From NCBI GenBank assembly GCA_038211115.1, contig JBBQVX010000003.1:2376-66375 (forward strand): a stretch of DNA of 64,000 bases, written 5' to 3'. Source of the stretch: Elusimicrobiota bacterium (GTDB taxonomy: Bacteria; Elusimicrobiota; Elusimicrobia; UBA1565; UBA9628). The stretch's first letter is position 1. Every line of letters starts with the position of its first letter. This document shows positions 3,553 to 28,047 of this stretch, piece after piece. The notes under the pieces are model-generated. The model was not told the origin of the DNA, did no database searches, and saw nothing but the letters and a program-made list of their open reading frames with translations. Made by a program: the position numbers and the translations under genes.

Positions 3553-6500
3553 GTGAAGCGACCCCTCGCCTCCGCCCTCGCCTTCCTTATTGTCCTGCTT
3601 TCACCGGGTGCGCCCGCCTATCAGGCGTTCGCGCAGACCGTCGGAAAGACCGGCGGGGCTGCGGGCTCGACCGGCGACGCCGCGAACTCCGTCAACTCGG
3701 GGATCAATAACGGCGTCACCGTTCCGCTGGCGCTTCCCGTACAGACGTTGGGCCTCAACGGGACCCTCAATACCGCCGCGATCGTCCCTATCCTTAATAA
3801 CGCGGTCAATCCGGCCCTGACCCCCGCCTTGATCCCGTCGCTGACGCCGGCGGCGATTGCCGGCGTCACGCCGACGTCTCTTGTCGTGCCCCTCGCGCTG
3901 ACTCCCTCGCGCCTAGCACCTGCGACCTCGGACGGCCAGACGGGCAAGATCCTCGTTCCCGTCGCGCTCAAGCCGACGGCGAAAATCGGGACAGGCCAGA
4001 GCGGCCTGTCGGCTGCGTCGAAGCAGATCGATGGCCTGTCGCGGACCGCGGCGCCCATCGTCGAAGGAGTCAAGAACGGCGACGCGACCCTCGCCCTAAA
4101 CGGCGTTTACGAAAACGGCTCCGCGCATGGGGAACTCGGCGCGGTGAAAGGCCGCTCGGGCCTCGGTGCCCTGCGCTCCGGGCTCAAGAAGTCGGCGCCG
4201 TCGACCGGCCAGCAGACGACGGCGGAGGTGCCGGCTGCCGCGGCTCCCGCCGCCAAAGCGAACCTGTGGCAGCGCGTCAAGTCGACCTTCGATCTCTCCG
4301 AGTTCAACAAGAGCGAGAAGTCCTACATCCTCGGCCAAGCGGTCTTCCTGTTCGCGATCTCGGTGTACCTCGCCTCCCTGCCGCTGCTCGTCAAGGCGTT
4401 GACGGGCGACGCCGCGATGACGGGCGTCGCGCGCATGGTCCACTACTGGGTGTTCGGCGGCGCGTCGCTCTTCGCGGGCGCCGTCGTCGGCAAGAACCCG
4501 ATGAAGCGCATTCTCGTCGGCGCCGCCGGCGGGCGCGCCCTGCTGTTCGGCACGATCGGCGCGCTGGCGCTGTTCGGCGGCCTGCCGTGGGCGGGCTTCC
4601 TGGTGCTCGTCGGCGTGAACTCCCTGCTCGTCGCCCACAACCATCTCGTCGACATCGACACGGGCGGCGCGGCCAAAATATTCAAGGGCGCGGACCAGAA
4701 GTCCACCGATCACAAGATCGAGAAGGCCGGCTACGTCTACGACTTCATCTACTACGGCATGATGCTGGTCGTGCCGGCCCTGATCGGCCTGCCGATGGAC
4801 TGGCTCGACGGGCGCTACGGCGCGGGCATCGGCGCCGCGGCCGGCTTCTCCCTGTTCGCGGCCCTGATGGGCGTGGTTTCCTATATATACGCGAAGCGGG
4901 TGGTGACCGTCGGCGACGCGATTTCGGCGCCTTTGGCCGGAATCAAGGACTTCTTCGCGCGCGCGGCCTCCGCGATCAGGACGTTCGGGCGCATCCTGCT
5001 CGACGTGCCGCGCCGCAACTTGGCGACGGCCAAGATCATCTTCCAGAACAAGGCGATCCTCGCCCGCTCCGCGATGGCGACGATGGAGAATTTCGTCGAG
5101 GACGCGCTGTTCGCCGTCGTCCTGCCGACGTTCGCGATCGATATCCTCAAGGTCGGCGCGTTCGGCAACGGCCTGCTGCTGTCCGCGATCACCGGCGGCG
5201 GGCTCGTCGCTTCGATGTTCCTGATGAAGCGCATCCAAGCGCTGCAGAAGAAGCACGGCACCTATAAAGTCCTGGCCGGCCTCACCGCGGTCGCGGCGCT
5301 CGCCTTCGTCCCCTCGATCGGCCTGTGGCTCGTGCCGTCGATCGCGCTCGCGATTCCCGCCGTGTTCATGATGAAGCTCATGCTGCAGCCGCTGCGCTCG
5401 CGCATGCGCGCCCTGCTGCAGACGGAGATCAAGAACGATCCGAAGGCCGCGCCTCACGCCGACGACATCTACAGCCTGATGACGTTCGTCGAGGTGCTCG
5501 CGGCCGGCGCGGGCGGGCTCGCGTTCTCGTGGCTGTTCCATCATTCCGTGGCCGGGACCGGCCTCTCTTTGGCCTTGGGCGCGCTCGCGCCGATGAAGAT
5601 CATCACGATCATCCTCGTCGCCATGGGCCTCGTCTACTTCGGCGGCCTGCGCTGGGTCAAGCAGCAGCTCAGCAAGCCGACGCATACCGTCCACCAGTCC
5701 CCCGAAGGCAACGAGGCGAAGATGCTCGAGCGCCTCGCGACCAGCCTCCAGGAGAACGGACTGCCCGAGTACAAGACCGCCGTCGTCAACGGCGAGGCGA
5801 GCGAGGACCTTCCCACGATCGCCGTGCTGGCGCCCGCGTCCCGCCACAAGATCGCGCTCGCGCGGGAGGGCGGCCGCCAGTCCCCGGGCGACTTCCATCT
5901 CGTGCTCGACTCCTCGTGGCTGATCCAGGAGACCTATCCCGACGGGCGCACGAAGCTTCTCGTCAAGAAGGCCGTGACCTTCGACGAAAAGGGCCAGGCC
6001 ACCGTCGTCGACTACGAGATTCCTCGTCGCGTACGCTACTTCGCGGACTACTTCACGCTCGGCTCGAACGACCGCGACGACGGCGTCGTCTTCGAGAAAA
6101 ATCTCGACGTGCCGCAGTCGAACTCGCTGCAGCTCGAGAAGGTCGTCAACGACAAGCTCGGCACGCGCCTGATCATGGCCGCCAGGGGCGTGGCCGTGCC
6201 CGCGACGTTGGCCCTGCTGATGCCCCTGCATCACCTCGCGGGCCAGCCGATGCTGACGCACGGCAGCGTGCAGGTTGCATTGATGCCCGCGGCCGAGTCG
6301 CGCGAGGCCGAGGTCGGCCGGCTCGTCGACGAGTATCTCGCGAATTTCAAGGGGGAGGAGCTCGTCGTGAAGCCCTCCGGGCCGCAGTTCCACTCCGGCC
6401 GCGGCGTGAAGTTCTTCAAGAAGTCCGAACGCGACGCGATCGTCGCGCACGCGCTGGCGCTGGCCGTCGACGGCCAGATGACGGAAGACGGCGCCGTCTT

Positions 6501-8373
6501 GCTGGACGAGCGCGTCAATTCGGCTCCCTTGAGCCGCGACGGCCGCAAGATGGAGACGACGGGGCGCATCCTCGTCGCGCGTACGCCTTGGGGCGGCGCG
6601 GTGACCACCGGGATGTTCGGGCGCGTCGGACCGTGGGGCAAGCCGACGACCGCCGAGGCGGCCGACCCGCGCGACAACGCGGTGATCGACTCGATGGAGA
6701 ATCTGTACGCCGAGTGGAAGAAGGCGGGCCTGCTCGACGACCACAGCGCCAAGGAGCTCGACGCGCTGATGCGCAAGACCGGCGAGGACGCGCTGCTCGC
6801 GATCGCCGAGTACGAGAAGAAGTTCGAGCGTAAGGACGGCGAGCCCTACCAGGCTCAGAGCGACATGATCGGTCTCGACGTGATGGTCGAGAAGCGCGAC
6901 GGCAAGCTCGTTCCCGTCATCATCGAGGTCAACGACCACGACTCCGGCGGCCAGTTCAACCTCGATAAGATGGGCCTGTACGGCATCGGCGAGCACTCCC
7001 GCGAGTGGGTCGCGACGATGCTCCAGCGCGCGCGTCGCGACGCCCTCAAGGGCAAGCGCGTCGTGCTCGTCGGCGCCGGCTACGCGGGCAAGCGCTTCAT
7101 CTTCGAGAAGGCGAAGAAGCTCGGCGTCGAGATCATCCTCGTCGACAAAAAGACCCCGTTCGTGTCCGACCTGATCCGCGACGGCCTGATCTCCGAGCTC
7201 ATCGAGACGGACAACGCCAAGCCCAAGGAAGCGCTGGCCTCGGCCAAGAAGAAGCTGCAGAAATCGATCCGCAAGAACGGGAAGATCGAAGGCATGACCA
7301 CTTTCTGGGAAGACGACGTGCCGCTGACGGCGGACCTGGCCAAGGAGCTCGGCCTGCCGTACCACACCCAGGATGCCGCCAAGTCCGTGCGCAGCAAGGC
7401 CGTGACGCGCGCCGTGATGGAAAAGGCCGGCTTGCCGACGCCGAGAAACCGCAAGGTGTCCTTGCCCGTCAAGATCGGCGCGGGCGACGCCGTCTACGCG
7501 AACGCGGTCGACGCGGCGCGCAAGCAGTTCGAGAAGGATCTGGTTCATGTCGGCTATCCTGCGGTGCTCAAGCCCGCGTTCGGCGCCGCCGCGATGGGCG
7601 TCAAGAAGGTGACGAACCACGCCGAGGCCCTGGCCGCCTTCGACGAAGTCCGCGCGATCGTCACGCCCGAGGTCGACCCGATCTTCGCCCAGGGCGCGGA
7701 CCTCGTGCTCGAGCAGTACCTCGACGGCCGCGAGTACGACGTCGACGTCGTGATGCGCGGCGGCAAGCCCATTTTCGTCTCCGTCACGGACAACTGGCCC
7801 ACGCGCGAGCCCTATTTCCTCGCGACGGGCTCGAGCCTCCCGAGCCGCCTGCTCAACGCGAAGGAGCAGAAAGAAGCCGGCGATCTCGCGATTTTGACCG
7901 CGCAGGCCCTCGGCCTGACCGACGGCGTGGTCCACATCGAGGGCAAGTACACGAAGGAAGGCGCGCGCATCATCGAGGCCAACGGCCGCATGGGCGGCGA
8001 ATACGTCCACGATTGGGTGGAGGCCGTCTGGGGCGTGAGTCTCGTCGAGGAGAACTTGATGGCCGCGACGCGCGTCGGCGGCAAGCCGTTCATGGCGCCG
8101 CAGCCGCTCACGCATCTCGAGGGCGAGTTCATCATCCCGACCGAGTCCGGCGTCATCTCCGACTTCGACCTGCCGGAGTCGGCGCGCCTGCAGGCCGGCT
8201 TCCACGAGCTGCGCGTGAAGAAGAAGGTCGGAGACCGCATCGCGGTGCCGCCCCACGGCTACGAGCGCGCGGGCATGCTCGTCGCGCGCGGGAAGACCAC
8301 GGCCGAGGCCCAGAAGAACCTCGACGCGCTCCGCGCGAATCTCCTCCTCAACATCAAGCCCGAGAAGAAATAG
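3553..8373 (+). CDS. Array protein 1 (1606 aa): shared N-terminal module + MFS-like permease + two ATP-grasp ligase modules
   Basis: Signal peptide ..APAYQAFA|QTVG, then a low-complexity stretch (LTPALIPSLTPAAIAGVTPTSLVVPLALTPS). MFS-like TM block at ~4320-5660 (motif-A-like GKNPMKRILVGAAGGRAL). ATP-grasp 1 at ~6150-6960 (ELVVKPSGPQFHSGRGV, VIIEVNDHDSGG). ATP-grasp 2 at ~7050-8373, L-amino-acid-ligase/carnosine-synthase-like (KRVVLVGAGYAGKRF, YPAVLKPAFGAAAMGV, EQYLDGREYDVDV, IIEANGRMGG). Confidence 0.85.
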   Translation: MKRPLASALAFLIVLLSPGAPAYQAFAQTVGKTGGAAGSTGDAANSVNSGINNGVTVPLALPVQTLGLNGTLNTAAIVPILNNAVNPALTPALIPSLTPAAIAGVTPTSLVVPLALTPSRLAPATSDGQTGKILVPVALKPTAKIGTGQSGLSAASKQIDGLSRTAAPIVEGVKNGDATLALNGVYENGSAHGELGAVKGRSGLGALRSGLKKSAPSTGQQTTAEVPAAAAPAAKANLWQRVKSTFDLSEFNKSEKSYILGQAVFLFAISVYLASLPLLVKALTGDAAMTGVARMVHYWVFGGASLFAGAVVGKNPMKRILVGAAGGRALLFGTIGALALFGGLPWAGFLVLVGVNSLLVAHNHLVDIDTGGAAKIFKGADQKSTDHKIEKAGYVYDFIYYGMMLVVPALIGLPMDWLDGRYGAGIGAAAGFSLFAALMGVVSYIYAKRVVTVGDAISAPLAGIKDFFARAASAIRTFGRILLDVPRRNLATAKIIFQNKAILARSAMATMENFVEDALFAVVLPTFAIDILKVGAFGNGLLLSAITGGGLVASMFLMKRIQALQKKHGTYKVLAGLTAVAALAFVPSIGLWLVPSIALAIPAVFMMKLMLQPLRSRMRALLQTEIKNDPKAAPHADDIYSLMTFVEVLAAGAGGLAFSWLFHHSVAGTGLSLALGALAPMKIITIILVAMGLVYFGGLRWVKQQLSKPTHTVHQSPEGNEAKMLERLATSLQENGLPEYKTAVVNGEASEDLPTIAVLAPASRHKIALAREGGRQSPGDFHLVLDSSWLIQETYPDGRTKLLVKKAVTFDEKGQATVVDYEIPRRVRYFADYFTLGSNDRDDGVVFEKNLDVPQSNSLQLEKVVNDKLGTRLIMAARGVAVPATLALLMPLHHLAGQPMLTHGSVQVALMPAAESREAEVGRLVDEYLANFKGEELVVKPSGPQFHSGRGVKFFKKSERDAIVAHALALAVDGQMTEDGAVLLDERVNSAPLSRDGRKMETTGRILVARTPWGGAVTTGMFGRVGPWGKPTTAEAADPRDNAVIDSMENLYAEWKKAGLLDDHSAKELDALMRKTGEDALLAIAEYEKKFERKDGEPYQAQSDMIGLDVMVEKRDGKLVPVIIEVNDHDSGGQFNLDKMGLYGIGEHSREWVATMLQRARRDALKGKRVVLVGAGYAGKRFIFEKAKKLGVEIILVDKKTPFVSDLIRDGLISELIETDNAKPKEALASAKKKLQKSIRKNGKIEGMTTFWEDDVPLTADLAKELGLPYHTQDAAKSVRSKAVTRAVMEKAGLPTPRNRKVSLPVKIGAGDAVYANAVDAARKQFEKDLVHVGYPAVLKPAFGAAAMGVKKVTNHAEALAAFDEVRAIVTPEVDPIFAQGADLVLEQYLDGREYDVDVVMRGGKPIFVSVTDNWPTREPYFLATGSSLPSRLLNAKEQKEAGDLAILTAQALGLTDGVVHIEGKYTKEGARIIEANGRMGGEYVHDWVEAVWGVSLVEENLMAATRVGGKPFMAPQPLTHLEGEFIIPTESGVISDFDLPESARLQAGFHELRVKKKVGDRIAVPPHGYERAGMLVARGKTTAEAQKNLDALRANLLLNIKPEKK

Positions 8374-8401
8374 CTCCGGGTCCTGCGGGCCGAAAATCCT
8401 A

Positions 8402-8466
8402 GGCCCATTCCCGTCGAGAAAGCGGGCCCTTCGGACCTGGGGTCCTCCTTGCTGCGGTGATAGACT
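8402..8466 (+). promoter_or_regulatory. Conserved upstream element + -10-like box of array gene 2
   Basis: GGCCCATTCCCGTCGAGAAAGCGGGCCCTTCGGACC (8402-8437), then 21-23 nt, then GATAGACT (TAGACT at 8461-8466), with ATG 6 nt later. Same architecture as 9823-9889 and 19726-19790. Confidence 0.45.
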
Positions 8467-8472: not shown

Positions 8473-9750
8473 ATGAACCGATCACTCGCCGTTTTCGTCT
8501 CCCTTCTCCTCGCGTCGTCTTCCTCGGCCCAGACCATCGGCCTCGTCGCGCCGAACTCGGCGGGCGGCGCCCCGGCGCTGATCATTCCGAGCACTCCGTT
8601 GATGGACGGCCATCTGGGCGTTCCCTCTTTGCTCTCTCCGTTGTCGTTGACCCCGTCGCTTTCCGTGTCGGCGGCGAGCATCGCCCCCACGCCGGTCCCC
8701 GCACTCGTTCCCGCGGCGGTCGTTCCGTTTTCCGTCAATGGCGTCCCGACGGTCGCCGCGTTCGGCGTGGCGAAAACGCTTTCCTCCAATCTGTCCGCGG
8801 CCGCGTCCGAAGGGCGCGGCCAGGCTCCGGCGCTCAACGCCTCGTTCGACGGCCTAAAGGCGGCGGCCACGCCCGATGAAGTCTCCGTTCCGAATCCGTC
8901 CGACGCGTTCGTCCTCGAGGCCCAGCGCCGCTTCGCCGCGCTCAAGGCCTCGGAGGACCAGAACCCCGGCGTCCTCCCTGAGGGCGCGATCCCCAGCGAC
9001 GACGACATGCATGGCCGCCTGGACCGGCTCCCCTCGACCAACCCCGAGCGCATGAAGTACATCGTCGATCTCTTCAAACTCGGCGGCGCGACCGACGCGG
9101 ACATCCGCCTGCAGGACGCCGGCAAGGGCCGTAATAACGTCATCGTGACGATCAAGGGCAAGACCGATCGCGTCATCGTCGTCGGCGGCCACTACGACAA
9201 GGTCAGCGAGGGCTTGGGCAAGATCGACAACGGCACGGGCTCGACGATGGTCGCCAACCTGTACCAGGCCATGCACGGCACGCAGCCCGACGCCACGCTC
9301 GTCTTCATCGCGTTCGCGCGTGAGGAAGAGGGCCTGTACGGGTCGCAGGCGTACGTGAAGTCGCTCGACAAGGCCGCGCGCGGAAAGATCGACGCGATGA
9401 TCAACCTCGATACGCTCGCGGTGGACGGCACGTTCTCCTGGAAGAACAACTCGACGCGCGCGATGCTCGACCGCTTCGCGAAAGTGTCGCGTGAGAGCGG
9501 CCACGCGATGAAGGAAGATTATTTGAACGGCGGCGACGCGGACTCCTCGACCTTCCGCGACGCGGGCATCCCGGCCGTCACGATCTACGGCGCGTCGCAG
9601 GACGTGATCTTCGACATCATCCACTCCGAGCGCGACAATATGTCCGCGTTCAACCTCCAGCACTACAAGAACGCGTACCTGCTCGTGCTCGAGGCCATCA
9701 AATCTCTCGACCGGACCCCGCTGGGTCCCGTCGCGCGCGGCGAAATCTGA
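8473..9750 (+). CDS. Array protein 2 (425 aa): shared N-terminal module + M28 family metallo-aminopeptidase
   Basis: Signal peptide ..LLASSSSA|QTIG; VPSLLSPLSLTPSLSVSAASIAPTPVPALVP; ..APALNASFDGLKAAATPDE. M28 motifs VVGGHYDKV, IDNGTGST and FAREEEGLYGSQ. Confidence 0.88.
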   Translation: MNRSLAVFVSLLLASSSSAQTIGLVAPNSAGGAPALIIPSTPLMDGHLGVPSLLSPLSLTPSLSVSAASIAPTPVPALVPAAVVPFSVNGVPTVAAFGVAKTLSSNLSAAASEGRGQAPALNASFDGLKAAATPDEVSVPNPSDAFVLEAQRRFAALKASEDQNPGVLPEGAIPSDDDMHGRLDRLPSTNPERMKYIVDLFKLGGATDADIRLQDAGKGRNNVIVTIKGKTDRVIVVGGHYDKVSEGLGKIDNGTGSTMVANLYQAMHGTQPDATLVFIAFAREEEGLYGSQAYVKSLDKAARGKIDAMINLDTLAVDGTFSWKNNSTRAMLDRFAKVSRESGHAMKEDYLNGGDADSSTFRDAGIPAVTIYGASQDVIFDIIHSERDNMSAFNLQHYKNAYLLVLEAIKSLDRTPLGPVARGEI

Positions 9751-9822: not shown

Positions 9823-9889
9823 GGGACCATTGCCCTCGAAATTTAGGGCCCTTGGACCCGTCGGTTTGGAAAGAGGCCTGTGATACTAT
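9823..9889 (+). promoter_or_regulatory. Conserved upstream element + -10-like box of array gene 3
   Basis: GGGACCATTGCCCTCGAAATTTAGGGCCCTTGGACCC (9823-9859), 22 nt, GATACT/TACTAT (9882-9889), ATG at 9897. Confidence 0.45.
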
Positions 9890-15023: not shown

Positions 15024-15145
15024 GGCGGGCGTCGTCTCAGCCGTCTGGCCCTTCCGGCAGTCCTAGAAGGCCTAGGCCTCTTGTTATAGAGGAGGGGGTC
15101 CTAGGGCCCTTCTGCAGAAAGACGGGGGAGGGTATCATGTGGGTA

Positions 15146-18697: not shown

Positions 18698-18709
18698 AAT
18701 CCGGGGCCC

Positions 18710-19000
18710 ATGCCAGCGCCCATCGTCGCGTCCATCGACTTCACGCCCCCGGCGGACGTCTCGTCCGGAGACTGCGAACTGTCGGTCGTCTTCGAGGACG
18801 GCGGCGGCTCGACATTCAAGGCCGCGACCTTCGATCGCGCCGAGGCGTGGATGGCCGGGGCCAAGTCGAAGGCGTGGTGGTCCGAGCCCGTGCTGTTCGT
18901 CGAGCGGCTCGACCCGAAGACGGTGCGAGCCGCCGTGGACGCGATGGCCGCCGAGATGGGCGGCTACTGGCTGCGCTATTACCACCGGAGAAAAGCGTGA
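18710..19000 (+). CDS. Small cytoplasmic protein, paralogue A (96 aa), unknown function
   Basis: Starts 12 nt after the gene 5 stop. Alignable by eye with the next ORF (..DGGGSTFKAATF..W...KAWWSEPVLFVERLD...AAVDAMAAE..YWLRY vs ..DGRQFTLLAATPSW...KFYYGPAVLFLKKMD...KAAKEMMAE..LLVRY). Confidence 0.6.
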   Translation: MPAPIVASIDFTPPADVSSGDCELSVVFEDGGGSTFKAATFDRAEAWMAGAKSKAWWSEPVLFVERLDPKTVRAAVDAMAAEMGGYWLRYYHRRKA

Positions 19001-19341
19001 GCCCGGTCTCGAACGCGGTCGGCCACATCGAGCTCGCGCACTTGTCCGATCCGGGCCGTCCCGAGCACGCGTGCGGCGTGATCGAGGTCTATCTCAAGGA
19101 CGGCCGGCAGTTCACCTTGCTCGCCGCGACGCCCTCCTGGTTCAAGGACGAGCTCACCCGGCTCAAGCTCAAGTTCTACTACGGCCCGGCCGTGCTGTTC
19201 CTCAAGAAGATGGATCTCGTCGCCGCGCGCAAGGCCGCCAAGGAGATGATGGCCGAGAACGAGCAGCTTCTCGTCCGCTACGACACGCCGCGGCGCACCT
19301 TGCCCGACATCCTCGCCGCCTTCCGCGCCGGTCATCCATGA
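18997..19341 (+). CDS. Small cytoplasmic protein, paralogue B (114 aa), unknown function
   Basis: GTG 18997 overlaps the previous stop (GTGA). In frame with track ORF 18847..19341, whose 5' part overlaps paralogue A. Confidence 0.55.
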   Translation: MSPVSNAVGHIELAHLSDPGRPEHACGVIEVYLKDGRQFTLLAATPSWFKDELTRLKLKFYYGPAVLFLKKMDLVAARKAAKEMMAENEQLLVRYDTPRRTLPDILAAFRAGHP

Positions 19342-19694
19342 CGGAAATCAAAACGGAGCGGCCGCTACTCCGTCTCGCGCTCGAAAATCCGATACCCTCC
19401 CTGCTTGCGGTGAGCTTCGTCGCGATGTGCGCCGTGCTCGGCATCGAGGAGCTCGAGGCTGGCCCGCACGCGATCCGCTGGCTGTCCCGGCATCACGCCT
19501 CCGTCGCGGTGATCAAGCAGGCCCTCTGCATGGCCGCGATTCCCGGGTTCGTCTTTCTGATGTATTGGAACTTCCGCGATAACATGCGGCGATCGAAGGA
19601 GCCGATGCCGCGGCTGAAGGCCATCGTGATCGGGACTTTGCTCGGCGGGGCCGTGCTGTACGGCGTGCTCTGGTACTTTCTATTCCGCCGCTGA
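19338..19694 (+). CDS. Small membrane protein (118 aa, ~3 TM), unknown function
   Basis: ATG 19338 overlaps the previous stop (ATGA). MTEIKTERPLLRLALENPIPSLLAVSFVAMCAVLG...; hydrophobic segments at AVSFVAMCAVLG, ALCMAAIPGFVFLMYW and AIVIGTLLGGAVLYGVLWYFLF. Confidence 0.6.
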   Translation: MTEIKTERPLLRLALENPIPSLLAVSFVAMCAVLGIEELEAGPHAIRWLSRHHASVAVIKQALCMAAIPGFVFLMYWNFRDNMRRSKEPMPRLKAIVIGTLLGGAVLYGVLWYFLFRR

Positions 19695-19798: not shown

Positions 19799-22700
19799 AT
19801 GAAACGATTCATCGCGGCCGTGCTCTCGATTTCGCTCATCCTCGTCTCGGCGCCGCTCCCGGCCTGGTCTCAAGTTTCCTCCGTCATCTCGGGCTCGGCC
19901 GCCGGCGTGAACGGCGCCGCCGCGGGCGCCTCCGTGAACTCGGGGATCCCGCAGCTGGCCATGCCGTCGATGAGCCTCACGGCCCCGGCGCTCTCGGGCT
20001 TCCTCTCCGCGCCGATGGCCAACAGCCCGGTGCTCCAGCGCAACGCTCCGATCAACGCTTCCGTGCCCGTCGAGTCTCGCGTCGGCCTCGCGATCGCCGT
20101 TCCTCTGTCCGCCGAGACGCCGGCTCCGCTTCCCGCCGCCGCCGCGTCGGAGAAGCCCGTCGCGAAGCCCGCCGCGCTCAATCCCGTCACCGCCGACGCG
20201 AAGAGCCTCGCCTCGGCCCGCGTCGACGTCGCCGAAGCCGCGGGCGCGATCGAGAAGGGCTCCGTCTCCGGTTCGCGCTCCGCCGCCGCGCGCATGATGG
20301 ACCGCCTGCTCGGCCTCGAGGAGTCCGGCGACCGCGAGCCGATCGTCGAGGGCCTTCCGCCCGCCGGCATCCTGTCCGCCGGCCTGACTCCGTCCGACGT
20401 CAATGAGCCCGCAGCCTTCCGCTCGAACGTGCCTTCCCCGAACACGCCCGATTCCAACGGACCCCGGCGCACGAAGTTCGGCGGCGCGGTCAAGATGATC
20501 GTGACGTTCGCCGTGGGCGCGGCCGTCGCCGTCGGCCTGCAGGTCGCGGCCGTGGCGCTTCTTCCCGCCGTGTTCGGCGTGGTTCCCGTCGCGGCGGTCT
20601 GGGCCGTCAGCTCAGGCGTCCTGCTCTTCCCGCTGGCGCTGTACGCGCGCTGGCGCCTCGCCAAGCGCGACTCCCCGCGCCTGAACAAGGTCAAGACCGT
20701 CCTCGACTTCGCGCTCGGCGCCTTCGCCGGCGCCGCGTTCATCGCCCTGCCGAGCCTCGGCGTCGTCCTCACGAGCGCCGGCCTCATGACCGCCGCCCTG
20801 CCGCTCGCCGCCGTCGCCGGCGGACGCTGGTTCGGTAGCTCCTCGCTCGCGGACTCCGTGCTGACCTGGACCGCTCTCGGCGTGACGCCCGCGGTCGTGG
20901 GCGTCGCCGCGGCCGTCGGGCTCATCGGCCTCTCGCCGATCATCGGCCTGATGGCCCTGCCCGCGATGACGACGATCGCCTTCTTCCTCGGCCGGCTCAT
21001 TCACTCGGCCGAGACCGGCGCGCCGTTCGCCGTGCCCGGCGCGATGCAGAAGATCCGCTTCCCGTCGTTCCAGTGGGTCATGATCGGCGTCGTGTTCGCG
21101 CTGCTGACCGGCTTCGGCGCGGTCTACACGAACATCGCCTTCCTCGCGTGGAACTTCCTCGGCTCGCGCGAGATGAAGTGGGACAAGAGCAAGCCGGTCG
21201 GCAAGCGTCTGCTCGGCCTGCTCCTCAACTTCGACGTGCTGTACTTGGGCCTGCTCGCGTTCACGGCCGTCACGGCGTTCACGAGCCCGCTGACGTTCCT
21301 CGTCATCGCGTTCTCCGGCGAGCGCGCCGCGGTCTGGACCGAGCGCCTGCTGTCGAAGCTGCTGCCGAAGGCCGCCGCCTCTCCGTCGACGAAGGCCGCG
21401 CCGGTCGCGGATCCGGACCTGCTCGCCGACCGTGCGCCGAAGTGGCCCGCGTTCCATTATAGGGTCAAGACCGCGCTTATGCTCGTCTCGATGGCCGGAG
21501 CCGGCGTCCTGCTCTCCGTCACCGTCTTCGGCATCACAAGCCTGCTGACGAATCTCGCGATCGCCTCCGTTCTCGCGTTCATCCCGTTCTTCTTCGCGAA
21601 GAAGATCATCAAACTCATGATGAAGGCGAAGCCGACCACGAAGGATCAGGATCCCGAGTTCTTCTCGATCATGGAAGGCCTGCGCGACAAGATCAACGCC
21701 GACCGCCGCGCGAAGGGCAAGAAGGAAATCCCGATGCCCGAGATGGTCATCGACCCGATGGACGCCCCGAACGCCTACGCGACCGGCCGCAGCCCGTTCG
21801 CCGCGATGGTCGGCGTGACGAAGGGCATCAAGACGATGACCCTCGAGCCCGAGATCGTCCGCGACGGCGTGGTGCGCCTGATCGCCTCGACCGACGCCGG
21901 CACTAAGGAGTTCAAGGTCTTCCGCCGCGCGATCGCCGGCTCGGTGACCGGCATCCCCGCCGACGCGACGCCCGCGCAGGTGGCGGCCGCCGTGCTCAAG
22001 GCGGACCGCTCCGAGCTCAAGGCCCTCGGCGTGCGCATGCTGCGCGGCGTTTTGGGACATGAGTTCTCCCACGTGATGGACCGGCACATGCTGACGGGCT
22101 CGATCGGCGGCGCGATCGCCTCCGGCGTCGCGTTCGCGTCTTACGGCGTCATGTGGGCCGTCGGCCACGCGCAGGTCGCCGTCAAGAAGGCGTTCGGCTG
22201 GCGATCTAAAGAGGCGTCGCCGGAAGCTTCTGCGACCCGGCCGGATGGCGACGCCGGCGTCAAGCCCGAAGCCCTCGATCCGATCTCGACGGGCATCGTC
22301 ATCAAGTCCCTGCCCGCGCTGCTCCGCCTGTTCGCGGCGCTGTGGGCGCCGGTGGTGCTCCAGATCCTCCAGATGGCGTCGTCGCGCAACAACGAGGGCA
22401 TGGCCGATGAGGATGGCGCGCTCCTGAGCGAGGATCCGGAATCCCTCGCGCTGGCGCTCGGCCTGCTTACGACGTGGCGGCCCGCGGCGGGCTTCCGCTT
22501 GCCGGGCTCGGTGGTCCCGCGCGCGGCGTCGATGCAGCACATCATGATCGTCAACCCGCTCGAGCAGCTCGAGAACGCGGGCGCGCTCCCGAAGACCTCG
22601 GCGTCCGGCGGCCCGACGCGCGCCGACGACCTCATCTTCGAGTTGTTCATCACGCACCCGAACACCGGCGTGCGCATCCGCAAGCTCCACGACATGTCCG

Positions 22701-24673
22701 AAGCGATGCGGGGAATTCGTCCCGCCAAGCCCAAGCCGCCGGAAGGCGGAGGGGGCGGGGGAGGCGGAGACCCACGGGTCTCCTTCGTCCCGCACGCCGG
22801 TCCCGCCTCCGAGAACATCGGAGGCGGTCTTCTTCGGGGCGCATGGGCGAAGCTGAAGAGCTCCCTGCGCGTGCTCCCCGATGAAGGCCGCAACCGGCAG
22901 TTCTGGATCTTCGCGCTGGGCCAGGGCCTGATCATGCTCGGCGTCAACTTCCACTACACGGCGCTTCCGAAGCTCGTGGCGCCGACCAAGGAGGACGCGG
23001 TCAAGCTGGGCTACAACCGCGCGATCAACTGGGGCGCGCAGGCCGGGGCGTCCCTCGTCACCGGGCCGCTGATCGACCGGGCCTCCACGCAGAAGGTCGT
23101 CGTGTGGACCGGCGTCGCGCGCGCGGCCCTGATGATGCTCGTGCCGGTCCTCTTCTTCCAGGGCTACCTCGGCTTCGCCATGTTCGCTGCGCTGATCGCG
23201 GCGGCGGGCTTCCTGCAGATGGCGGCGACCACCGCCGGAACGGTCGCCTTCAACCGCATCCTCGCCGACGACGTGGACCACTACAACAAGGCGAACGGCG
23301 TGCTGACAATCGTCATGAACGCGGTCGGCGTGGTCGGGCCGCTGCTCGCGGGCGCCTTCATCGCGACGGTCAGCGCCCATTTCGGCCTGCTCAGCGGCAA
23401 CGCGATGGCCTACGCCGTCTACGGCGCGCTGATCCTCGCCTGCTCCGTCGTCTACACGCTGTGGCTCAAGCTGCCGCGCGACGAGATGATGGCGGCGCGG
23501 CGCGACCTGGGCGCGGTCCTCAAGCGGGACGGCGTCGGCGGCGCGGCGTACCGCGGAGTCACCGGCGGCCAGGTGGAGGGGCGCCCGGCCATCCTCGTCG
23601 AGGTGGACGGCGACGTCTCCGCGGCGGTCGTTCCCGCCGAGTTCGGCGGCTTCCCGGTCAAGGCGGTCGCCCGGCGCCGCGTGTTCAACGAGGTCGTCGA
23701 GGGCTTCAAGACGATCGTGCGCGACCGCTTCCTGTTCCGCTACCTGCTGTCGCTGACGCTGGCCGTCATGCTCGGCGACGGCCTGCTCTTCGCCGCGCTG
23801 CCGCGCTTCCTCGAGGACGTTCTTCACGCGGGCGCGGGCTCCTTCGGCCTGTTCCTCGCGGCGTCGTCGCTCGGCACGGGCCTCGGCTCGGGCCTCATGG
23901 CGTTCGCGCGCGACCCTCAGCAGATGGCGCTGGCGCCGTCGGCCCGCGTCTTCCGGTCCGAACTCTCTGCCCTCGAGCCCGCGCTGGACGCGAAGGCGCT
24001 CGACGCGGCCACGGCCGCCCTGCGCGGCGCGCTGCCGTCGGTGCTGGCTCGCTATAAAGAGGATTGGCTGAAGGGGGGGCCGGCCGTTTCGGGCGCGACG
24101 TTCGGAGCCGATCTCACGGGCGAGGGCGCGCGCGCGGTCGGCCTGGCGCTCGGGCGCTCCGAGGCCGAGGCCCTTTCGCTGCTCGAGGCGACCAGCGCCT
24201 CGAGCGACCTGCGCGCGTGGGCGAACCTTCGCGGCGCCAAACTCCTCGCGGGCGCGTTCAAGGACGCGACGACCGGCATGGACCGGCTCCAGCGCCAGGG
24301 CAAGTTCACCTCCTGGCTCCACGGCTTCTCGTGGCTCGCGTTCGCCGCGCTGTTCTTCTCCGGCAGCCTGCACCTGGCCGTCGCGCTGATGCTCGTGTCC
24401 TCGATCCTCGGCGCGCCCGCGTCCGTCGCGTGGACGTCGCTCACGACGAAGGTCGTGTCGGGCTCCTACAACGAGAGCCAGGGCAAGATCTACTCCGCGA
24501 TGTTCTTCTATCAGCTCGTCTTCGCGATCGCGGGCGTGCTGATCGTCGGCTGGCTGATGTCCGCCTTCGCCACGGGGACGGTCCTCTTGATCGCCGGCGG
24601 CGTCATGGGGCTGTGCGCGCTGATCGACTTCGTCTCGCCCTCGCTGATCTTCCCGATCGGCCGAAGGCGCTAG
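19799..24673 (+). CDS. Array protein 6 (1624 aa): shared N-terminal module + polytopic block + M48 (HtpX-like) Zn-peptidase + Gly8 linker + MFS-like permease
   Basis: Signal peptide ..SAPLPAWS|QVSSV; IPQLAMPSMSLTAPALSGFLSAPMANSPVL. TM block at ~20480-21650. M48 motifs DAPNAYATG, HEFSH (22058-22072), NEGMADEDGA and THPNTGVRIRKL. GGGGGGGG at ~22744-22767. MFS-like block at ~22890-24673 (GPLIDRASTQKVVVWTGVARA). Confidence 0.85.
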   Translation: MKRFIAAVLSISLILVSAPLPAWSQVSSVISGSAAGVNGAAAGASVNSGIPQLAMPSMSLTAPALSGFLSAPMANSPVLQRNAPINASVPVESRVGLAIAVPLSAETPAPLPAAAASEKPVAKPAALNPVTADAKSLASARVDVAEAAGAIEKGSVSGSRSAAARMMDRLLGLEESGDREPIVEGLPPAGILSAGLTPSDVNEPAAFRSNVPSPNTPDSNGPRRTKFGGAVKMIVTFAVGAAVAVGLQVAAVALLPAVFGVVPVAAVWAVSSGVLLFPLALYARWRLAKRDSPRLNKVKTVLDFALGAFAGAAFIALPSLGVVLTSAGLMTAALPLAAVAGGRWFGSSSLADSVLTWTALGVTPAVVGVAAAVGLIGLSPIIGLMALPAMTTIAFFLGRLIHSAETGAPFAVPGAMQKIRFPSFQWVMIGVVFALLTGFGAVYTNIAFLAWNFLGSREMKWDKSKPVGKRLLGLLLNFDVLYLGLLAFTAVTAFTSPLTFLVIAFSGERAAVWTERLLSKLLPKAAASPSTKAAPVADPDLLADRAPKWPAFHYRVKTALMLVSMAGAGVLLSVTVFGITSLLTNLAIASVLAFIPFFFAKKIIKLMMKAKPTTKDQDPEFFSIMEGLRDKINADRRAKGKKEIPMPEMVIDPMDAPNAYATGRSPFAAMVGVTKGIKTMTLEPEIVRDGVVRLIASTDAGTKEFKVFRRAIAGSVTGIPADATPAQVAAAVLKADRSELKALGVRMLRGVLGHEFSHVMDRHMLTGSIGGAIASGVAFASYGVMWAVGHAQVAVKKAFGWRSKEASPEASATRPDGDAGVKPEALDPISTGIVIKSLPALLRLFAALWAPVVLQILQMASSRNNEGMADEDGALLSEDPESLALALGLLTTWRPAAGFRLPGSVVPRAASMQHIMIVNPLEQLENAGALPKTSASGGPTRADDLIFELFITHPNTGVRIRKLHDMSEAMRGIRPAKPKPPEGGGGGGGGDPRVSFVPHAGPASENIGGGLLRGAWAKLKSSLRVLPDEGRNRQFWIFALGQGLIMLGVNFHYTALPKLVAPTKEDAVKLGYNRAINWGAQAGASLVTGPLIDRASTQKVVVWTGVARAALMMLVPVLFFQGYLGFAMFAALIAAAGFLQMAATTAGTVAFNRILADDVDHYNKANGVLTIVMNAVGVVGPLLAGAFIATVSAHFGLLSGNAMAYAVYGALILACSVVYTLWLKLPRDEMMAARRDLGAVLKRDGVGGAAYRGVTGGQVEGRPAILVEVDGDVSAAVVPAEFGGFPVKAVARRRVFNEVVEGFKTIVRDRFLFRYLLSLTLAVMLGDGLLFAALPRFLEDVLHAGAGSFGLFLAASSLGTGLGSGLMAFARDPQQMALAPSARVFRSELSALEPALDAKALDAATAALRGALPSVLARYKEDWLKGGPAVSGATFGADLTGEGARAVGLALGRSEAEALSLLEATSASSDLRAWANLRGAKLLAGAFKDATTGMDRLQRQGKFTSWLHGFSWLAFAALFFSGSLHLAVALMLVSSILGAPASVAWTSLTTKVVSGSYNESQGKIYSAMFFYQLVFAIAGVLIVGWLMSAFATGTVLLIAGGVMGLCALIDFVSPSLIFPIGRRR

Positions 24674-24781
24674 CGCGGCCTCTCAGGCCCAATTCCGGAG
24701 TCCTATGGCCTCTCGTTCGTTGGGACCAATGCCAGGCCCTCGTTGGGACCTATGACCCGCCTAGGAATCCTCCTCGGGCGT

Positions 24782-24816: not shown

Positions 24817-27800
24817 ATGAAGCGCTTTCGCTCGCTGATCGCCCTCACCCTGTCGCTCGCCCTCGTCGTTTTGTCCCCGGGCTCGAGCGCTTATAACGCC
24901 GCCGCGCAGACGATGAACGCGGCCAACGGTGCGACCGTCACGGGCGTTACGGGCGTCGCCGGCGCGAACCTCGGCCGCACCTCCGGGGTCGACGCGATCC
25001 CGACGCTGTCTCCTTCCGGCCTGGGCCTCTCCTCCGTCCTGTCGGCTCCTTCGATCACGCCGTCCGCGCTGCAGCAGGCCGCCGTAATCCCGGCGCCTTC
25101 CGTCGCCTCGCCGGTCGCCGCGAACGCGGTCATCCCCTCGATGACCCCCGTCGCCCTTAAGACGATCGCCTCCGCGGCCGCCAAGGCCGTCGTCCCCGGC
25201 GTGAACGCGCCGGTCTCCGCCAAGACCGCCGTGATCCAGGCGCTGAAGACCCAACTCTCCGTCCCGTCCATCGCCGATAAGCCCTCCGAAACCCAAGTCC
25301 TCGAGGCCCGCAAGCAGTTCGACGGCGAGGCCCTGAAGCCCGGCCTGTCCGTCCCCGCCGTCTCCGGCAAGGGAACCGAGAGCCGCGGCTCCGACCTGAA
25401 GGCCGCGAAGAAGGCCGGCACGCCCGGCGAGAACGTGGACGAGAACGGCAATCCCTCTCATGAGCACGGCCCGATCGACGGCCTCGGCAACGCGACGCGC
25501 GTCGGCGGCGAGAACGGCCCGGACGACCATAACGACGGAAGCCATCGCGGGGGCGGCACCTTGCTCGGCCTGTTCGGCGCCGGCCTGCTCGGCGGCGGCG
25601 CGCTGACGGTCGCGGCCCTGTCCCTGGGCTCGATCGCGATGTTCCCGATGATCATCATCTCCCTGATCCTCCACGAGATCGGCCACGCGCGCATGGCCGA
25701 CAAGCTCGGCGATCCGACGGCCCGCCTGCAGAACCGCGCGAGCTTCAATCCTCGCCACTGGCTGACGCACATCGACCCGATTTGGACCCTGCTGATCCCG
25801 GCGGCCAGCTTCTTCCTGACGGGCATGATCTTCGGCGGCGCGCGTCCCGTGCCCGTCGAGCCCCGCTACTTCAAGAACCCGGTCAAGGGCATGGCGCTCG
25901 TCGCCTTGGCCGGACCGGCCGTCAACATGGGCCTGGCCGTCGCGGGCGCGCTCGCGATCACCGGCGCGGTGGCCGCGGGCCTCGGCGCGGGCGTCGTCGC
26001 GATGCTCGGCATGTTCGTGTTCCTCAACGTCCTGCTCGCGGTCTTCAACATGATCCCGCTGCCGCCGCTGGACGGAAGCCACATGCTCAAGGCCTTCCTG
26101 CCCGCGAACGCCCGCTACGCGATGGACAACTTCATGGCGAAGCTCGGGCCCATGGGCGCCTTCGTGCCCCTGATGATCCTGTTCTGGGTGGCCGGCGGCG
26201 CGATCTCGGGCGCTGCGATGTTCATCGCCAAGCTCCTGATCGGCGGCGTGATGTCGGTCACCGGCGTCAGCATGGCCAGCGCCTTCCTGCCGGCCGTGGC
26301 CGCTCTCGGACTCGCGGTCGGACAGCTCGGCGCGGGCGCGGGAAAATCCGCCGGCGTCGCGGCGGCCGACACGTCCGCGGTCCCCGGCCCGTCGGGCCCG
26401 ACCAACGGCGCTGCCGCGACCAACGGCGCTCCGCATCCCGTCGACCTGATCGTGATGTTCGGCGAGAAGAAGACCAATCTGCACGACTCGCACATCTCGA
26501 ACGTGGACGTGAACCTGCCCTCCGGCGTCGAGCAGTACACGCGCCTGCAGCAGGCGATGCTGACCCAGCTCGCGACCGCCGGCCTCGACTCCGCCGCCCT
26601 CGAGTCTTATAAGGGAACTCCGCTCGCGACGTACGCGCGCATCAACGCCGCCACGATCCGCGTCGACGGCGCCTCCGTCGCCGAGTTCACGCAGGACATG
26701 GCCAAGCGCGGCTTCACCGTCTATCAGAATTCCGAGCGCAAGATCATCCGCCCCGTCCCCGTCACGCCCGAACAGATGGACCCCGACGCGCGCAACGCCG
26801 TCACGATGGACGAGAACCTCAAGATCACCAAGGCCGACCTCGTGCAGGCCGAAGGCGTGAAGAAGTGGGGCAAGCCCGAGCTCGGCTTCTGGTCCGGTCT
26901 CTGGGCCAAAGTCTTCAAGAGCGAGCCGCCGCAGCCCAAGTTCGGCGTCATCGACAGCGGCTATGAAGCGACGCATCCGCTTCTTAAGCGCATGAAGGAG
27001 CTCAAGAACATGACCTCCGGCGCGAACATCGACGATATCGGCCACGGCTCGTGGGTGAGCTCGACGATCCTGCATATGGCGCCGTGGTCGAGGAACACGA
27101 CACACTACAAGACTTTCGTGGACGGCGGCGCGACGCTCGACGACATCCTCAAGTCGCTCACGCAGGCCGGCAACGACGGCAACCTCGTCATCTCCAACTC
27201 GTGGGGCGACGACCAGGGCGACCCGAACGGTCCCGACGCCCAGCTCGTCAAGAAGCTCGCGCAGGAAGGCCATATCATGGTCTTCGCGGCCGGCAACGCC
27301 GGTTCGGGCAAGAACACCATCGGGGCGCCCGCCATCGTGACCTACAAGGACGCCGAGACCGGCGCGATCCGCGTCGTCTCCGTGGCCGCCGCCGGCCGCG
27401 ACAAGAAGGTCGCCTACTTCTCCTCGCGCGGCCCCGGCTCGCCCGTGACCTCGAAGGACGCATCCTACAAGGATCATCGCCCCGACCTGACGGCCGTCGG
27501 CTACAACATCGAGGGCGCGTGGCCCGCGGCGCTCAACGACGCCGACCGCGTGGACGGCGAGAAGGGGCCCGTGAAGGCCATCTCCGGCACCTCGATGTCG
27601 ACCCCCGGCGTCGCCGGCGCGATCGCGCTGCTCGCGATGATGTTCGGCGTGACGGAGAAGGGCGTCAAGCTCGACGCGATCGTCAACGCGGTCATGTCGA
27701 CCCTCGAGAAGACGGGCAAGAACACCGTCGACGAGGAAGGCGAAGGCTTCCTGAACGTGGACGCCGCGTACAAGAAGCTCCAGGCCGCGTTCTCGACCGT

Positions 27801-28047
27801 TCCGCCCGACGTCGCCGCGTTCCGCGCGCTGAAAGCCCGCGAGAGCGTCCTGTACCGCTACCTCGTCACGGCGGCCGCGGCCGACAGCGCCGCCAGCCTC
27901 TATTTCCATGAGGCGACCGAGGAGCTCAAGACGGTGACGGCGGACATCCAGGCGATGAAGGCCGCCGACAAAACTTTGGCTTACCGGGCCGCCGGCCCGA
28001 TTAAGCGTTTCATCCTAAATGCGACCGGCGCCGCCCCCAAACCTTAA
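24817..28047 (+). CDS. Array protein 7 (1076 aa): shared N-terminal module + M50 (site-2-protease family) membrane metalloprotease + I9-like propeptide + subtilisin S8 serine protease
   Basis: Signal peptide ..SSAYNAAA|QTMNA; IPTLSPSGLGLSSVLSAPSITPSAL..IPAPSVASPV; KQFDGEALKPG. M50 motifs HEIGH (25672-25686) and NMIPLPPLDGSH. S8 triad: VIDSG (Asp 26953-26955), HGSWV (His 27043-27045), GTSMSTPGVAG (Ser 27592-27594). Confidence 0.88.
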   Translation: MKRFRSLIALTLSLALVVLSPGSSAYNAAAQTMNAANGATVTGVTGVAGANLGRTSGVDAIPTLSPSGLGLSSVLSAPSITPSALQQAAVIPAPSVASPVAANAVIPSMTPVALKTIASAAAKAVVPGVNAPVSAKTAVIQALKTQLSVPSIADKPSETQVLEARKQFDGEALKPGLSVPAVSGKGTESRGSDLKAAKKAGTPGENVDENGNPSHEHGPIDGLGNATRVGGENGPDDHNDGSHRGGGTLLGLFGAGLLGGGALTVAALSLGSIAMFPMIIISLILHEIGHARMADKLGDPTARLQNRASFNPRHWLTHIDPIWTLLIPAASFFLTGMIFGGARPVPVEPRYFKNPVKGMALVALAGPAVNMGLAVAGALAITGAVAAGLGAGVVAMLGMFVFLNVLLAVFNMIPLPPLDGSHMLKAFLPANARYAMDNFMAKLGPMGAFVPLMILFWVAGGAISGAAMFIAKLLIGGVMSVTGVSMASAFLPAVAALGLAVGQLGAGAGKSAGVAAADTSAVPGPSGPTNGAAATNGAPHPVDLIVMFGEKKTNLHDSHISNVDVNLPSGVEQYTRLQQAMLTQLATAGLDSAALESYKGTPLATYARINAATIRVDGASVAEFTQDMAKRGFTVYQNSERKIIRPVPVTPEQMDPDARNAVTMDENLKITKADLVQAEGVKKWGKPELGFWSGLWAKVFKSEPPQPKFGVIDSGYEATHPLLKRMKELKNMTSGANIDDIGHGSWVSSTILHMAPWSRNTTHYKTFVDGGATLDDILKSLTQAGNDGNLVISNSWGDDQGDPNGPDAQLVKKLAQEGHIMVFAAGNAGSGKNTIGAPAIVTYKDAETGAIRVVSVAAAGRDKKVAYFSSRGPGSPVTSKDASYKDHRPDLTAVGYNIEGAWPAALNDADRVDGEKGPVKAISGTSMSTPGVAGAIALLAMMFGVTEKGVKLDAIVNAVMSTLEKTGKNTVDEEGEGFLNVDAAYKKLQAAFSTVPPDVAAFRALKARESVLYRYLVTAAAADSAASLYFHEATEELKTVTADIQAMKAADKTLAYRAAGPIKRFILNATGAAPKP

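Follow-up and report, generated by a model that had tools for sequence, protein, structure and literature searches.

A shared N-terminal leader in a conserved gene array of Elusimicrobia: a possible envelope tether on unrelated enzymes and transporters

A 64,000-nucleotide stretch of an Elusimicrobiota bacterium genome (assembly GCA_038211115.1, contig JBBQVX010000003.1, positions 2,376 to 66,375), hereafter the window, carries an array of seven genes, g1 to g7, whose products begin with a common N-terminal leader and continue into unrelated enzymes and transporters. The array is conserved in an uncultured clade of groundwater Elusimicrobia, its genes are individually promoted, and nearly every product bears the leader. 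The leader, or module, consists of a Sec signal, a spacer predicted to be disordered, and a helical segment closed by an F-D-G-type motif. Tentatively, we interpret it as a docking handle and a tether to the membrane or envelope that is peculiar to this cluster, an interpretation that we hold with somewhat less than even confidence.

The order of the elements is identical in all seven proteins: signal peptide, Gly/Ala/Ser-rich stretch, uncharged spacer, charged helix segment and aromatic-acidic motif. By inspection, all seven N-termini are signal peptides of the Sec/signal peptidase I type, with a basic n-region (K/R in the first 2-5 residues), an h-region of 10-14 residues and a cleavage site of the form [AS]-x-[AS]/Q-[TV]-[IVMS], where the slash marks the predicted cut; a signal ending like A-x-A/Q-[TV], proposed from the sequence alone, is therefore present throughout. 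The proteins have no lipobox, Cys being absent from the predicted cleavage sites and their surroundings, and Tat ([ST]-R-R-x-F-L-K) and prepilin (G/[FM]xxxE) motifs are absent from all seven N-termini. Behind the signal peptide, the Gly/Ala/Ser-rich start of the module carries an N-G-G-like island and leads into a spacer of 50-90 residues without charge, composed of Ala, Leu, Val and Ser with a Pro at every fourth or fifth position. The uncharged Pro/Ala/Ser/Leu/Val-rich part measures 100-170 residues in total. Relative to the remainder of each protein, the modules are enriched in Ala, Pro, Ser and Thr (Ser+Thr 15-20%, Pro 8-14%) and sparse in charged and aromatic residues. They close with a mixed-charge segment predicted to be helical and then with [FYM]-[DET]-[GNR], typically A-F-D-G. 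The succession of low-complexity stretch, helix and F-D-G/acidic patch described earlier was thus found in 7/7 proteins, with the motif exact in g2, g3, g4 and g7, where it lies in the same 40-residue zone (chance of at least 4/7 about 1e-7), and variant in the other three.

The structure of the g3 module was predicted with AlphaFold2, as the sequence-only reading had advised. Residues 22-180 have a predicted local distance difference test score (pLDDT) below 50, and the sole helix, of low confidence, spans residues 118-135, just before the motif; the model is disordered elsewhere in the module. Pfam and NCBIfam are blank over the module, in agreement with the initial impression that it is not a described domain. 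In particular, Pfam-A/NCBIfam scans of the seven full-length proteins gave no match over the first 150-250 residues, be it to PEP-CTERM, LPXTG, GlyGly-CTERM, T9SS CTD, SLH or another sorting or anchor domain.

Similarity of the modules was then evaluated beyond composition. In Smith-Waterman alignments against local-composition shuffles, z-scores of 4-11 were obtained for pairs 2-3, 2-5, 3-5, 4-7, 5-7 and 1-3, and values near 0 for several pairs involving g6 or g1. Leave-one-out hidden Markov models (HMMs) ranked g2, g3 and g5 (E ~1e-8), g4 (7e-5) and g6 (6e-4) higher than any of the 300 local shuffles. With significance calculated for a whole proteome, composition-adjusted BLASTP connected g2 with g3 (1.5e-13), g3 with g5 (3e-4) and g4 with g7 (2e-3); after SEG masking g2-g3 alone remained significant. 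Profile-profile comparison with orthologues included linked g2, g3, g4, g5 and g7 at 59-97% probability (g2-g3 HHalign 96.7%), and 21/21 pairs beat reversed-profile controls. At the DNA level a single 57-nt stretch of 81% identity is shared, around the F-D-G codons of g2 and g3, and DNA repeats were rejected on this ground as the cause of the module similarity. By these sequence comparisons the modules of g2, g3, g4, g5 and g7 are demonstrably a true homologous unit; those of g1 and g6 have the common architecture, with weak sequence support. The expectation that the modules would exceed shuffled low-complexity controls was accordingly borne out for the first five, the signal being weak for g1 and g6.

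Comparison with related genomes indicates that the constrained element is the motif, rather than the spacer sequence or the Gln at the mature N-terminus (+1), because the motif persists while spacer and Gln change and its Asp is invariant. Relative to a counterpart of the array (L001; loci and proteins of related genomes are designated by L and P numbers), modules are 48-60% identical and payloads 80-91%. Three islands are fixed among 41 g3-family members: FAQ, which holds the cleavage site, NPAxxGGVS, and AFDG, whose Asp (D149) never varies. Spacer composition drifts with genome GC, and in the lineage of 61% GC (L017) the spacer is more polar and Gln is missing from +1, the motif being kept (ATFDAG, ETFDGL, KSFDGL). 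Element order and motif are preserved across the seven families and in lineages down to 45% payload identity. The motif is also found without the module: the PrcB_C-domain protein encoded before g1 ends in LPSFDGR, directly before the stop codon, in the window and in SFDGR or SFDGLNRP in every genome examined (SFDG[RL] in L009, L010, L011, L014, L015 and L017). Such an ending on a module-less protein is what one would predict for an F-D-G motif that several proteins use in common for binding or recognition.

The leader is, as far as the sequences searched indicate, confined to one conserved gene cluster. Relatives were found by a scan of a genome collection with g4 and a scan of metagenomes with the F-D-G region (5-sequence motif alignment). 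The two scans gave 13 loci, all Elusimicrobia-like and all with the same array, as were 8/8 of the metagenome loci found through the motif; three look-ups were added, namely a complete genome (L015, CP096137.1), the lineage L017 and the unrelated context of the esterase P0067. The array is held by 14/17 related loci, with the same gene order and payloads, the usual order being PrcB_C protein, g1, optional insert, g2, g3, g4, g5, small proteins, g6, g7 and response regulator. In the more distant loci L004 and L005 the module is on g3 and g4 only, beside a stand-alone, module-less double ATP-grasp gene. Seven family module HMMs, run on the six-frame open reading frames (ORFs) of the window and 17 loci (301 kb), recovered array-gene N-termini and P0004 (described below) only, and about 16 other signal-peptide proteins of the window and the related loci are all module-less. 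These searches, which follow up those recommended at the outset, found the module, within the 301 kb and apart from P0004, array-restricted and, together with the Pfam/NCBIfam scan, outside any described family. An exhaustive HMMER search with the module profile yielded 8 matches among 1.84 billion representative proteins, 7/8 of which are orthologues of g1, g5 (P0002, P0006 and P0008) and g6 (P0001 and P0005), the eighth being P0004, a g3-type module on an alpha/beta-hydrolase; a word-indexed search with the same profile returned a single match, its candidate list being swamped by low-complexity words. The g3 homologues (n=58) are all from Elusimicrobia, all unannotated and all with the module, and a literature search for a described Elusimicrobia sorting signal returned nothing relevant.

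Two analogies drawn from the sequence alone do not fit this distribution. The array does not behave as a polymorphic effector locus, because identical payloads stand at identical, syntenic positions in related genomes and are more conserved than the module; polymorphic loci pair a conserved N-terminal trafficking part with C-terminal payloads that differ from strain to strain, usually beside immunity genes. Nor does the leader look like a genome-wide sorting tag: in the 301 kb it occurs only on array N-termini and P0004, and no cognate sorting enzyme was identified. Nothing in these results marks it as a general sorting tag, and a sorting function is hypothetical.

The exception outside the array families is informative. 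The payload of P0004 belongs to a widespread esterase family. Its nearest relatives in that family are lipoproteins in which [VA]-P-[NH]-x-[PA]-W-R comes directly after the lipobox Cys. In pairwise alignment Ser144 of P0004 falls on Cys24 of P0067, a 143-residue module replacing the lipoprotein signal and lipid anchor exactly at +1; the P0004 contig is 2.2 kb only. As the module stands where homologues have a lipoprotein signal and lipobox Cys, the alignment argues that it substitutes for an N-terminal anchor and tether and that it would supply export and some form of tethering in P0004. The notion of one label on unrelated payloads thus extends to an esterase.

The array proteins have a further property in common. 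Of the 7,621 residues in the seven proteins, 4 are Cys; two of these belong to the g3 signal peptide and none to g1. In 22 other proteins of the window, 68 of 7,827 residues are Cys (0.87%). The exclusion recurs in orthologues at six other loci and in L017 (set: L001-L005, L013, L015, L017), and the g3 family (n=58) has a single Cys among the 41,769 residues that lie past position 40. The exclusion extends to the g1 ATP-grasp regions, whereas the stand-alone module-less ATP-grasp gene of L004 encodes 13 Cys. The array proteins have a normal Met content, and Cys is present in other secreted proteins of the same genomes. Cys exclusion is array-specific and puzzling. Gram-positive bacteria are known to keep Cys out of their exported proteins, a habit of bacteria whose disulfide machinery is limited (Daniels et al., PMC2823432). 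The likeness is that array proteins with export signals are nearly Cys-free; the difference is that here the array only is affected, including ATP-grasp parts expected to be cytoplasmic.

The Gln at +1 is a different matter. It had been presented as a conserved feature of the module and is found in 7/7 array proteins, but A-x-A/Q also occurs in about 9/16 module-less secreted proteins (by eye; Table 1) and Gln is lost in L017, which keeps the module. Because of its presence in module-less proteins, the residue suggests, at the sequence level, a secretome-wide habit of the clade resembling the Q-rule, in which Gln at +1 of most signal-peptidase-I substrates is turned into pyroglutamate by a glutaminyl cyclase and which was described as Bacteroidetes-specific (PMC5837995, PMC10653852). 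The likeness lies in A-x-A/Q on the seven array proteins and on about 9/16 other secreted proteins; the differences are that Gln would here be a trait of the lineage secretome and not of the module, and that it is missing in L017.

From the architecture, the homology of five modules, synteny, predicted disorder, motif conservation, the anchor replacement in P0004 and the restriction to the array, we infer a tether and docking function and a partner. The signal peptide would direct the N-terminus to the inner membrane or across it, with the spacer as a flexible tether. Helix and F-D-G would form the conserved functional element, which may bind a common partner or a cluster-encoded protease, and the hydrolases, transporters and ligases of the array would thereby be held together at the envelope. 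We count in favor of this proposal the near-total Cys exclusion, which points to an array-wide common selective regime.

Several observations weigh against the tether and docking proposal. In the MFS part of g1, with its 12 hydrophobic segments, 38 K+R fall in the loops of the cytoplasmic side and 2 in those of the outer side; on this charge distribution the residues right after the g1 module should be cytoplasmic, as in a canonical N-in MFS protein, and a cruder loop count 5' of the HtpX-like part of g6 points in the same direction. In L002, gX, the counterpart of g1, carries the leader directly on two ATP-grasp domains, and in L003, gY carries it on M48 followed by an ABC1 atypical-kinase domain; both lack a transmembrane (TM) segment in between and both are essentially Cys-free (the g7 orthologue of L002 has the same architecture as that of the window). 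A simple secreted-tag picture, as originally drawn, clashes with the N-in topology of g1 and with these TM-less fusions. Opposing signs are that the signal peptides look cleavable (A-x-A, h-region of 10-14 residues) and that M28, S8 and esterase domains are typical exported enzymes. For the side on which motif and payloads lie, the two lines of evidence conflict. A stop-transfer anchor formed by the spacer would reconcile signal peptides with cytoplasmic payloads; it is conceivable, yet Hessa-scale sums of the best 19-mers are +4.9 to +8.1, AlphaFold2 builds no helix there, and a TM helix is thus not predicted. Moreover, 4/7 array proteins are polytopic and need no anchor, F-D-G is undocked in the g3 monomer model, and partner and binding are hypothetical. 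Finally, g1 and g7 were not recovered above local shuffles by the leave-one-out HMMs, which counts here for g1, and in the profile-profile comparison g1 and g6 reached 5-19%, i.e. weak homology.

Other explanations start from the same facts. The leader could go beyond tethering and be the address label of a dedicated, undescribed envelope-targeting system, in which a cluster protease or receptor would read helix and F-D-G and in which normally cytoplasmic enzyme types (ATP-grasp, Cas4-like, HAD, ABC1 kinase) would be fixed, with proteases and transporters, in an oxidising extracytoplasmic or membrane compartment. If true, this would explain the Cys purge in the whole array and only there; we regard it as unlikely. 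A cleavable processing or sorting label, with [FYM]-[DET]-G as the site of an array protease (S8 or M50 of g7, M48 of g6, or a CPBP-type enzyme in some loci), seems a somewhat better candidate, though still an improbable one. It would be analogous to PEP-CTERM/exosortase and GlyGly-CTERM/rhombosortase, but N-terminal. A single motif is common to unrelated payloads, P0004 shows that the module can be grafted onto a new one, and the array is unusually protease-rich, with a CPBP-like gene (recognised by motif only) between g1 and g2 in several loci. Classical subtilisins prefer, at P1-P4, a large hydrophobic residue after small residues, a preference that A-[AST]-F (small residues, then F/Y/M) fits. 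PrcB-family proteins of Treponema partner an S8 protease, and the PrcB_C neighbour here closes with this SFDG too. However, 100-150 residues separate motif and hydrophobic helix, which are adjacent in known sorting signals; no sorting-enzyme family was detected and cleavage is hypothetical; L004 and L005, with module and motif on g3 and g4 only, have no protease genes nearby; and the leader is restricted to one array instead of a dispersed substrate set.

The modules might also be functionless, fast-evolving low-complexity linkers, alike through duplication or 5'-end exchange and GC-rich codons (Ala, Pro, Gly, Ser), F-D-G being the first conserved piece of the mature protein. Low complexity, quick divergence, the loss of significance for all pairs except g2-g3 under SEG masking, the leave-one-out failure of g1 and g7, a spacer composition that tracks genome GC and the lack of structure in the AlphaFold2 model are what this explanation would lead one to expect. 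We nevertheless find it doubtful, as order and motif are kept across seven paralogous families and over the full range of payload divergence, exact F-D-G in 4/7 is far from chance and the motif also ends a module-less neighbour, other secreted proteins of the same genomes have no such linkers, all profile pairs beat reversed controls, and an esterase acquired the module where its homologues have a lipoprotein signal. Very unlikely in our estimate, although compatible with the tether, is an O-glycosylated, mucin-like, protease-resistant stalk made by GT-C-type (PMT_2/TMEM260-like) enzymes. A/S/P-rich low-complexity regions are O-glycosylation targets in Neisseria (general system) and Actinobacteria (PMT enzymes), and the Ser+Thr and Pro content of the modules speaks for the idea. 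Four polytopic GT-C-like genes lie 2-12 kb downstream of the array (Table 1), with sugar-modification genes and a glycosyltransferase-like gene (judged by eye) nearby. Three of the four Pfam matches are below the gathering threshold, however, and PMT_2 enzymes also act on lipids and glycans; in L002 no linkage of array and glycosyltransferases is seen, the response regulator being followed by an outer-membrane-like gene; and the F-D-G motif is left unexplained. Near the GT-C-like genes of the window, Pfam identified SDR and methyltransferase genes, and the glycosyltransferase-like ORF was recognised from its translation.

The payloads were assigned mainly with Pfam and NCBIfam. M28 in g2, PDDEXK_1 in g4, M48/HtpX with MFS_1 in g6 and M50 with S8 in g7 were matched, and ATP-grasp_4, LAL_C2 and ATPgrasp_N are clear in g1, whose second ATP-grasp is of the L-amino-acid-ligase type. 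These calls of the sequence-only reading therefore stood; less secure are the MFS parts of g1 (TIGR00900, E 4e-5) and g5 (weak match), the first ATP-grasp of g1 (E 0.11) and the HAD region of g5, suggested by the motif FDYDDTL alone. A hydropathy scan classed g1, g5, g6 and g7 as polytopic and g2, g3 and g4 as soluble behind the signal peptide. For g3 no sequence family matched in Pfam/NCBIfam, and comparison of g3 and of the g5 HAD-like region with PDB sequences gave nothing useful. The g3 payload folds confidently in AlphaFold2 (pLDDT 80-90, 41-homologue alignment), and Foldseek matched the model to HAD phosphatases of ISN1, Cof and PMM (phosphomannomutase) types (best E 7e-8, ISN1) and to PD-(D/E)XK domains of Cas4/AddB type (best match to ACE1 of the Cas4 family, E 1e-4). 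The paralogues g3 and g4 are only distantly related. The HAD fold has a Rossmannoid core, a cap and a DxD motif I, and the PD-(D/E)XK core often carries a 4-Cys Fe-S cluster. In the g3 family motif I reads V-V-x-I-L-D-x-[FL]-x-G, in which the nucleophile Asp is kept and the second Asp is missing, and the Cas4-like domain lacks the Cys for an Fe-S cluster; the FDYDDTL of g5 is canonical. With these residues missing, the catalytic competence of the g3 and g4 enzymes is uncertain, and they may be non-canonical or inactive.

The layout of the locus is given in Table 1. All seven genes, co-directional as first described and with the coordinates then given, have coding-type GC by codon position (GC1 ~0.64, GC2 ~0.45, GC3 0.88-0.93), and long antisense ORFs opposite g1-g7 were rejected as high-GC shadow artefacts. 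GC is 62-71% across the window, except for a 52.6% stretch at 38-40 kb; related sequences of the window are groundwater Elusimicrobia metagenome-assembled genomes. The g4 ATG directly follows the g3 stop codon, the public gene call of g3 (P0009) begins 7 codons downstream, and an exact-sequence look-up of g2 in public assemblies returned no match, its start codon there being probably different. The genes g1, g2, g3, g5, g6 and g7 and the PrcB-like gene share an element in the intergenic DNA 40-70 nt 5' of their starts, TAGGCC...GGGCCCTT(C)GGACCC with a -10-like hexamer behind it; g4 has none. Near-exact matches number 5 versus 0.7 expected, two of them before unrelated genes, and GGGCCCTTGGACCC was accordingly rejected as an array-specific regulator site. 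Because similar sites also occur outside the array, the element is probably a promoter feature general to the lineage. Neither an Rfam nor a tRNA scan of the window returned a match.

The small genes between g5 and g6 encode two related products of ~100 and 115-164 aa and one small membrane protein; they are conserved in the array and had no Pfam match, and in L002 the two related products are fused in a single 210-aa ORF. A stand-alone response regulator follows g7 in the window and in L002. What lies between g1 and g2 varies among related genomes: some loci have a CPBP/CAAX-type membrane protease-like gene, recognised by its motif only (EExxxR...FxxxH), and others a gene on the opposite strand, with HAMP and adenylate/guanylate cyclase domains in L001; the gap of the window has neither. 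In the complete genome L015, g1 and g6 are annotated as two or three genes each. These splits were rejected as evidence against the fusions: the tails look out of frame and the intervening DNA still encodes the missing domains, so that assembly frameshift errors are, from the sequence, the most likely cause.

Table 1. Position of array genes, modules and neighbouring or related features (window coordinates unless a locus is named; aa numbers refer to the protein; / marks the predicted cleavage site)
Feature	Position	Strand	Description
PrcB_C-domain protein	2944..3471	+	Secreted, module-less; Pfam PF14343, E 7e-5; always precedes g1
g1	3553..8373	+	1606 aa; module, then 12-TM MFS-like domain and two ATP-grasp regions
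g1 module	3553-4119	+	Signal peptide aa 1-27, AFA/Q; VYENG aa 185-189
g2	8473..9750	+	425 aa; module, then M28 aminopeptidase
g2 module	8473-8856	+	Signal peptide aa 1-19, SSA/Q; SFDGL aa 124-128
g3	9897..12242	+	781 aa; module, HAD-fold domain, Cas4/AddB-like PD-(D/E)XK domain, Lys-rich tail
g3 module	9897-10370	+	AFA/Q; TFDGL aa 154-158
g3 HAD motif I	10407-10500		aa 181-195
g4	12243..15023	+	926 aa; module, extra domain, HAD-like domain, PDDEXK_1
g4 module	12243-12665	+	AMA/Q; AFDGS aa 137-141
g5	15146..18697	+	1183 aa; module, HAD-like region (FDYDDTL), polytopic MFS-like region
g5 module	15146-15619	+	ALA/Q; FFTGA aa 154-158
Small genes between g5 and g6	18698..19694	+	No signal peptide, no module; two related products at 18698-19341
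Small g5-g6 genes in relatives	L002 14938-15567; L015 17366-18000		
g6	19799..24673	+	1624 aa; module, polytopic block, M48/HtpX-like protease, MFS domain
g6 module	19799-20308	+	AWS/Q; MMDRL aa 166-170
g7	24817..28047	+	1076 aa; module, M50 (site-2-protease type) membrane domain, S8 subtilase
g7 module	24817-25329	+	AAA/Q; QFDGE aa 167-171
Response-regulator receiver protein	28060..28452	+	Stand-alone; Pfam Response_reg, E 2e-23; directly after g7
Response regulator in relative	L002 21419-21829		3' of g7
Shared upstream element	8401-8440, 9823-9862 (+), 19726-19765, 24722-24761; also 15096-15109, 49794-49807, 58173-58186		
GT-C-like gene	29764-31194	-	Weakly TMEM260-like
GT-C-like genes	34951-36732, 36729-37958		Weakly PMT_2
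GT-C-like gene	37959-40460		PMT_2 above threshold, C-terminal TPR repeats; in 52.6%-GC stretch
PrcB_C protein in relatives	L009 2358-2891; L014 4190-4723; L015 2730-3263; L017 2699-3256; also L011		
Module-less A-x-A/Q proteins	Window 2944-3471; L004 4596, 12763; L005 5717; L010 15182(-); L011 302; L014 1061, 16200		
gX	L002 3146-6538		g1 counterpart
gY	L003 7179-12251		Leader, M48, ABC1 kinase domain
CPBP/CAAX-like gene in g1-g2 gap	L007 4168-4875; L011 8902-9552; L012 2267-3130; L013 8147-8869		
Opposite-strand gene in g1-g2 gap	L001 4397-6241; L009 7744-9681; also L010	-	HAMP and cyclase (L001)
Split annotations of g1 and g6	L015 3341-8477, 18087-22289		

Of the systems already described, the disordered N-terminal linkers (tethers) of Gram-negative lipoproteins come close to the module (El Rayes et al., bioRxiv 10.1101/2021.01.05.425367). 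Like them, the module stands directly behind a signal peptide, is predicted to be disordered, tolerates changes of composition and is found on unrelated payloads, and in P0004 it occupies the place of signal, lipobox Cys and linker of homologous esterases. It differs in having no lipobox Cys, a Gln at the mature N-terminus and an uncharged, hydrophobic composition, in ending with helix and F-D-G, in its presence on polytopic proteins too and in one array only, and in its length of 100-170 aa, several times that of usual linkers. With LPXTG/sortase, PEP-CTERM/exosortase, GlyGly-CTERM/rhombosortase and T9SS CTD it shares a short motif and a hydrophobic helix on unrelated proteins, with proteases nearby. 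Those tags, however, are C-terminal, with the motif beside the helix and substrates dispersed over the genome, whereas the module is N-terminal, has its motif more than 100 residues from the helix, belongs to one syntenic array and matches no enzyme or family model. In the prcB-prcA-prtP (dentilisin) locus of Treponema denticola, a PrcB-family protein partners an S8 protease. The array likewise has a small secreted PrcB_C protein beside a cluster with an S8 subtilase; it differs in that no PrcA homologue was seen, S8 is fused to M50 and the PrcB-like protein ends in F-D-G; a functional link is hypothetical.

Only the existence of machinery dedicated to recognising or sorting it would make the leader categorically new; otherwise it is a variant of signal peptide plus disordered tether. 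If it is a docking or sorting device, it would represent a rare N-terminal, Sec-coupled label by which an entire operon-like group of envelope enzymes is organised, in a phylum whose cell biology has hardly been studied by experiment, and motif and HMM would offer a handle for finding the partner. Cys exclusion over ~7,600 residues and in many genomes, together with the clash between signal peptides and cytoplasmic payload types, could revise the assumed location of these enzymes in diderms. If the leader is a flexible tether only, its recognition would still provide a useful annotation of an Elusimicrobia-specific cluster now labelled 'hypothetical'.

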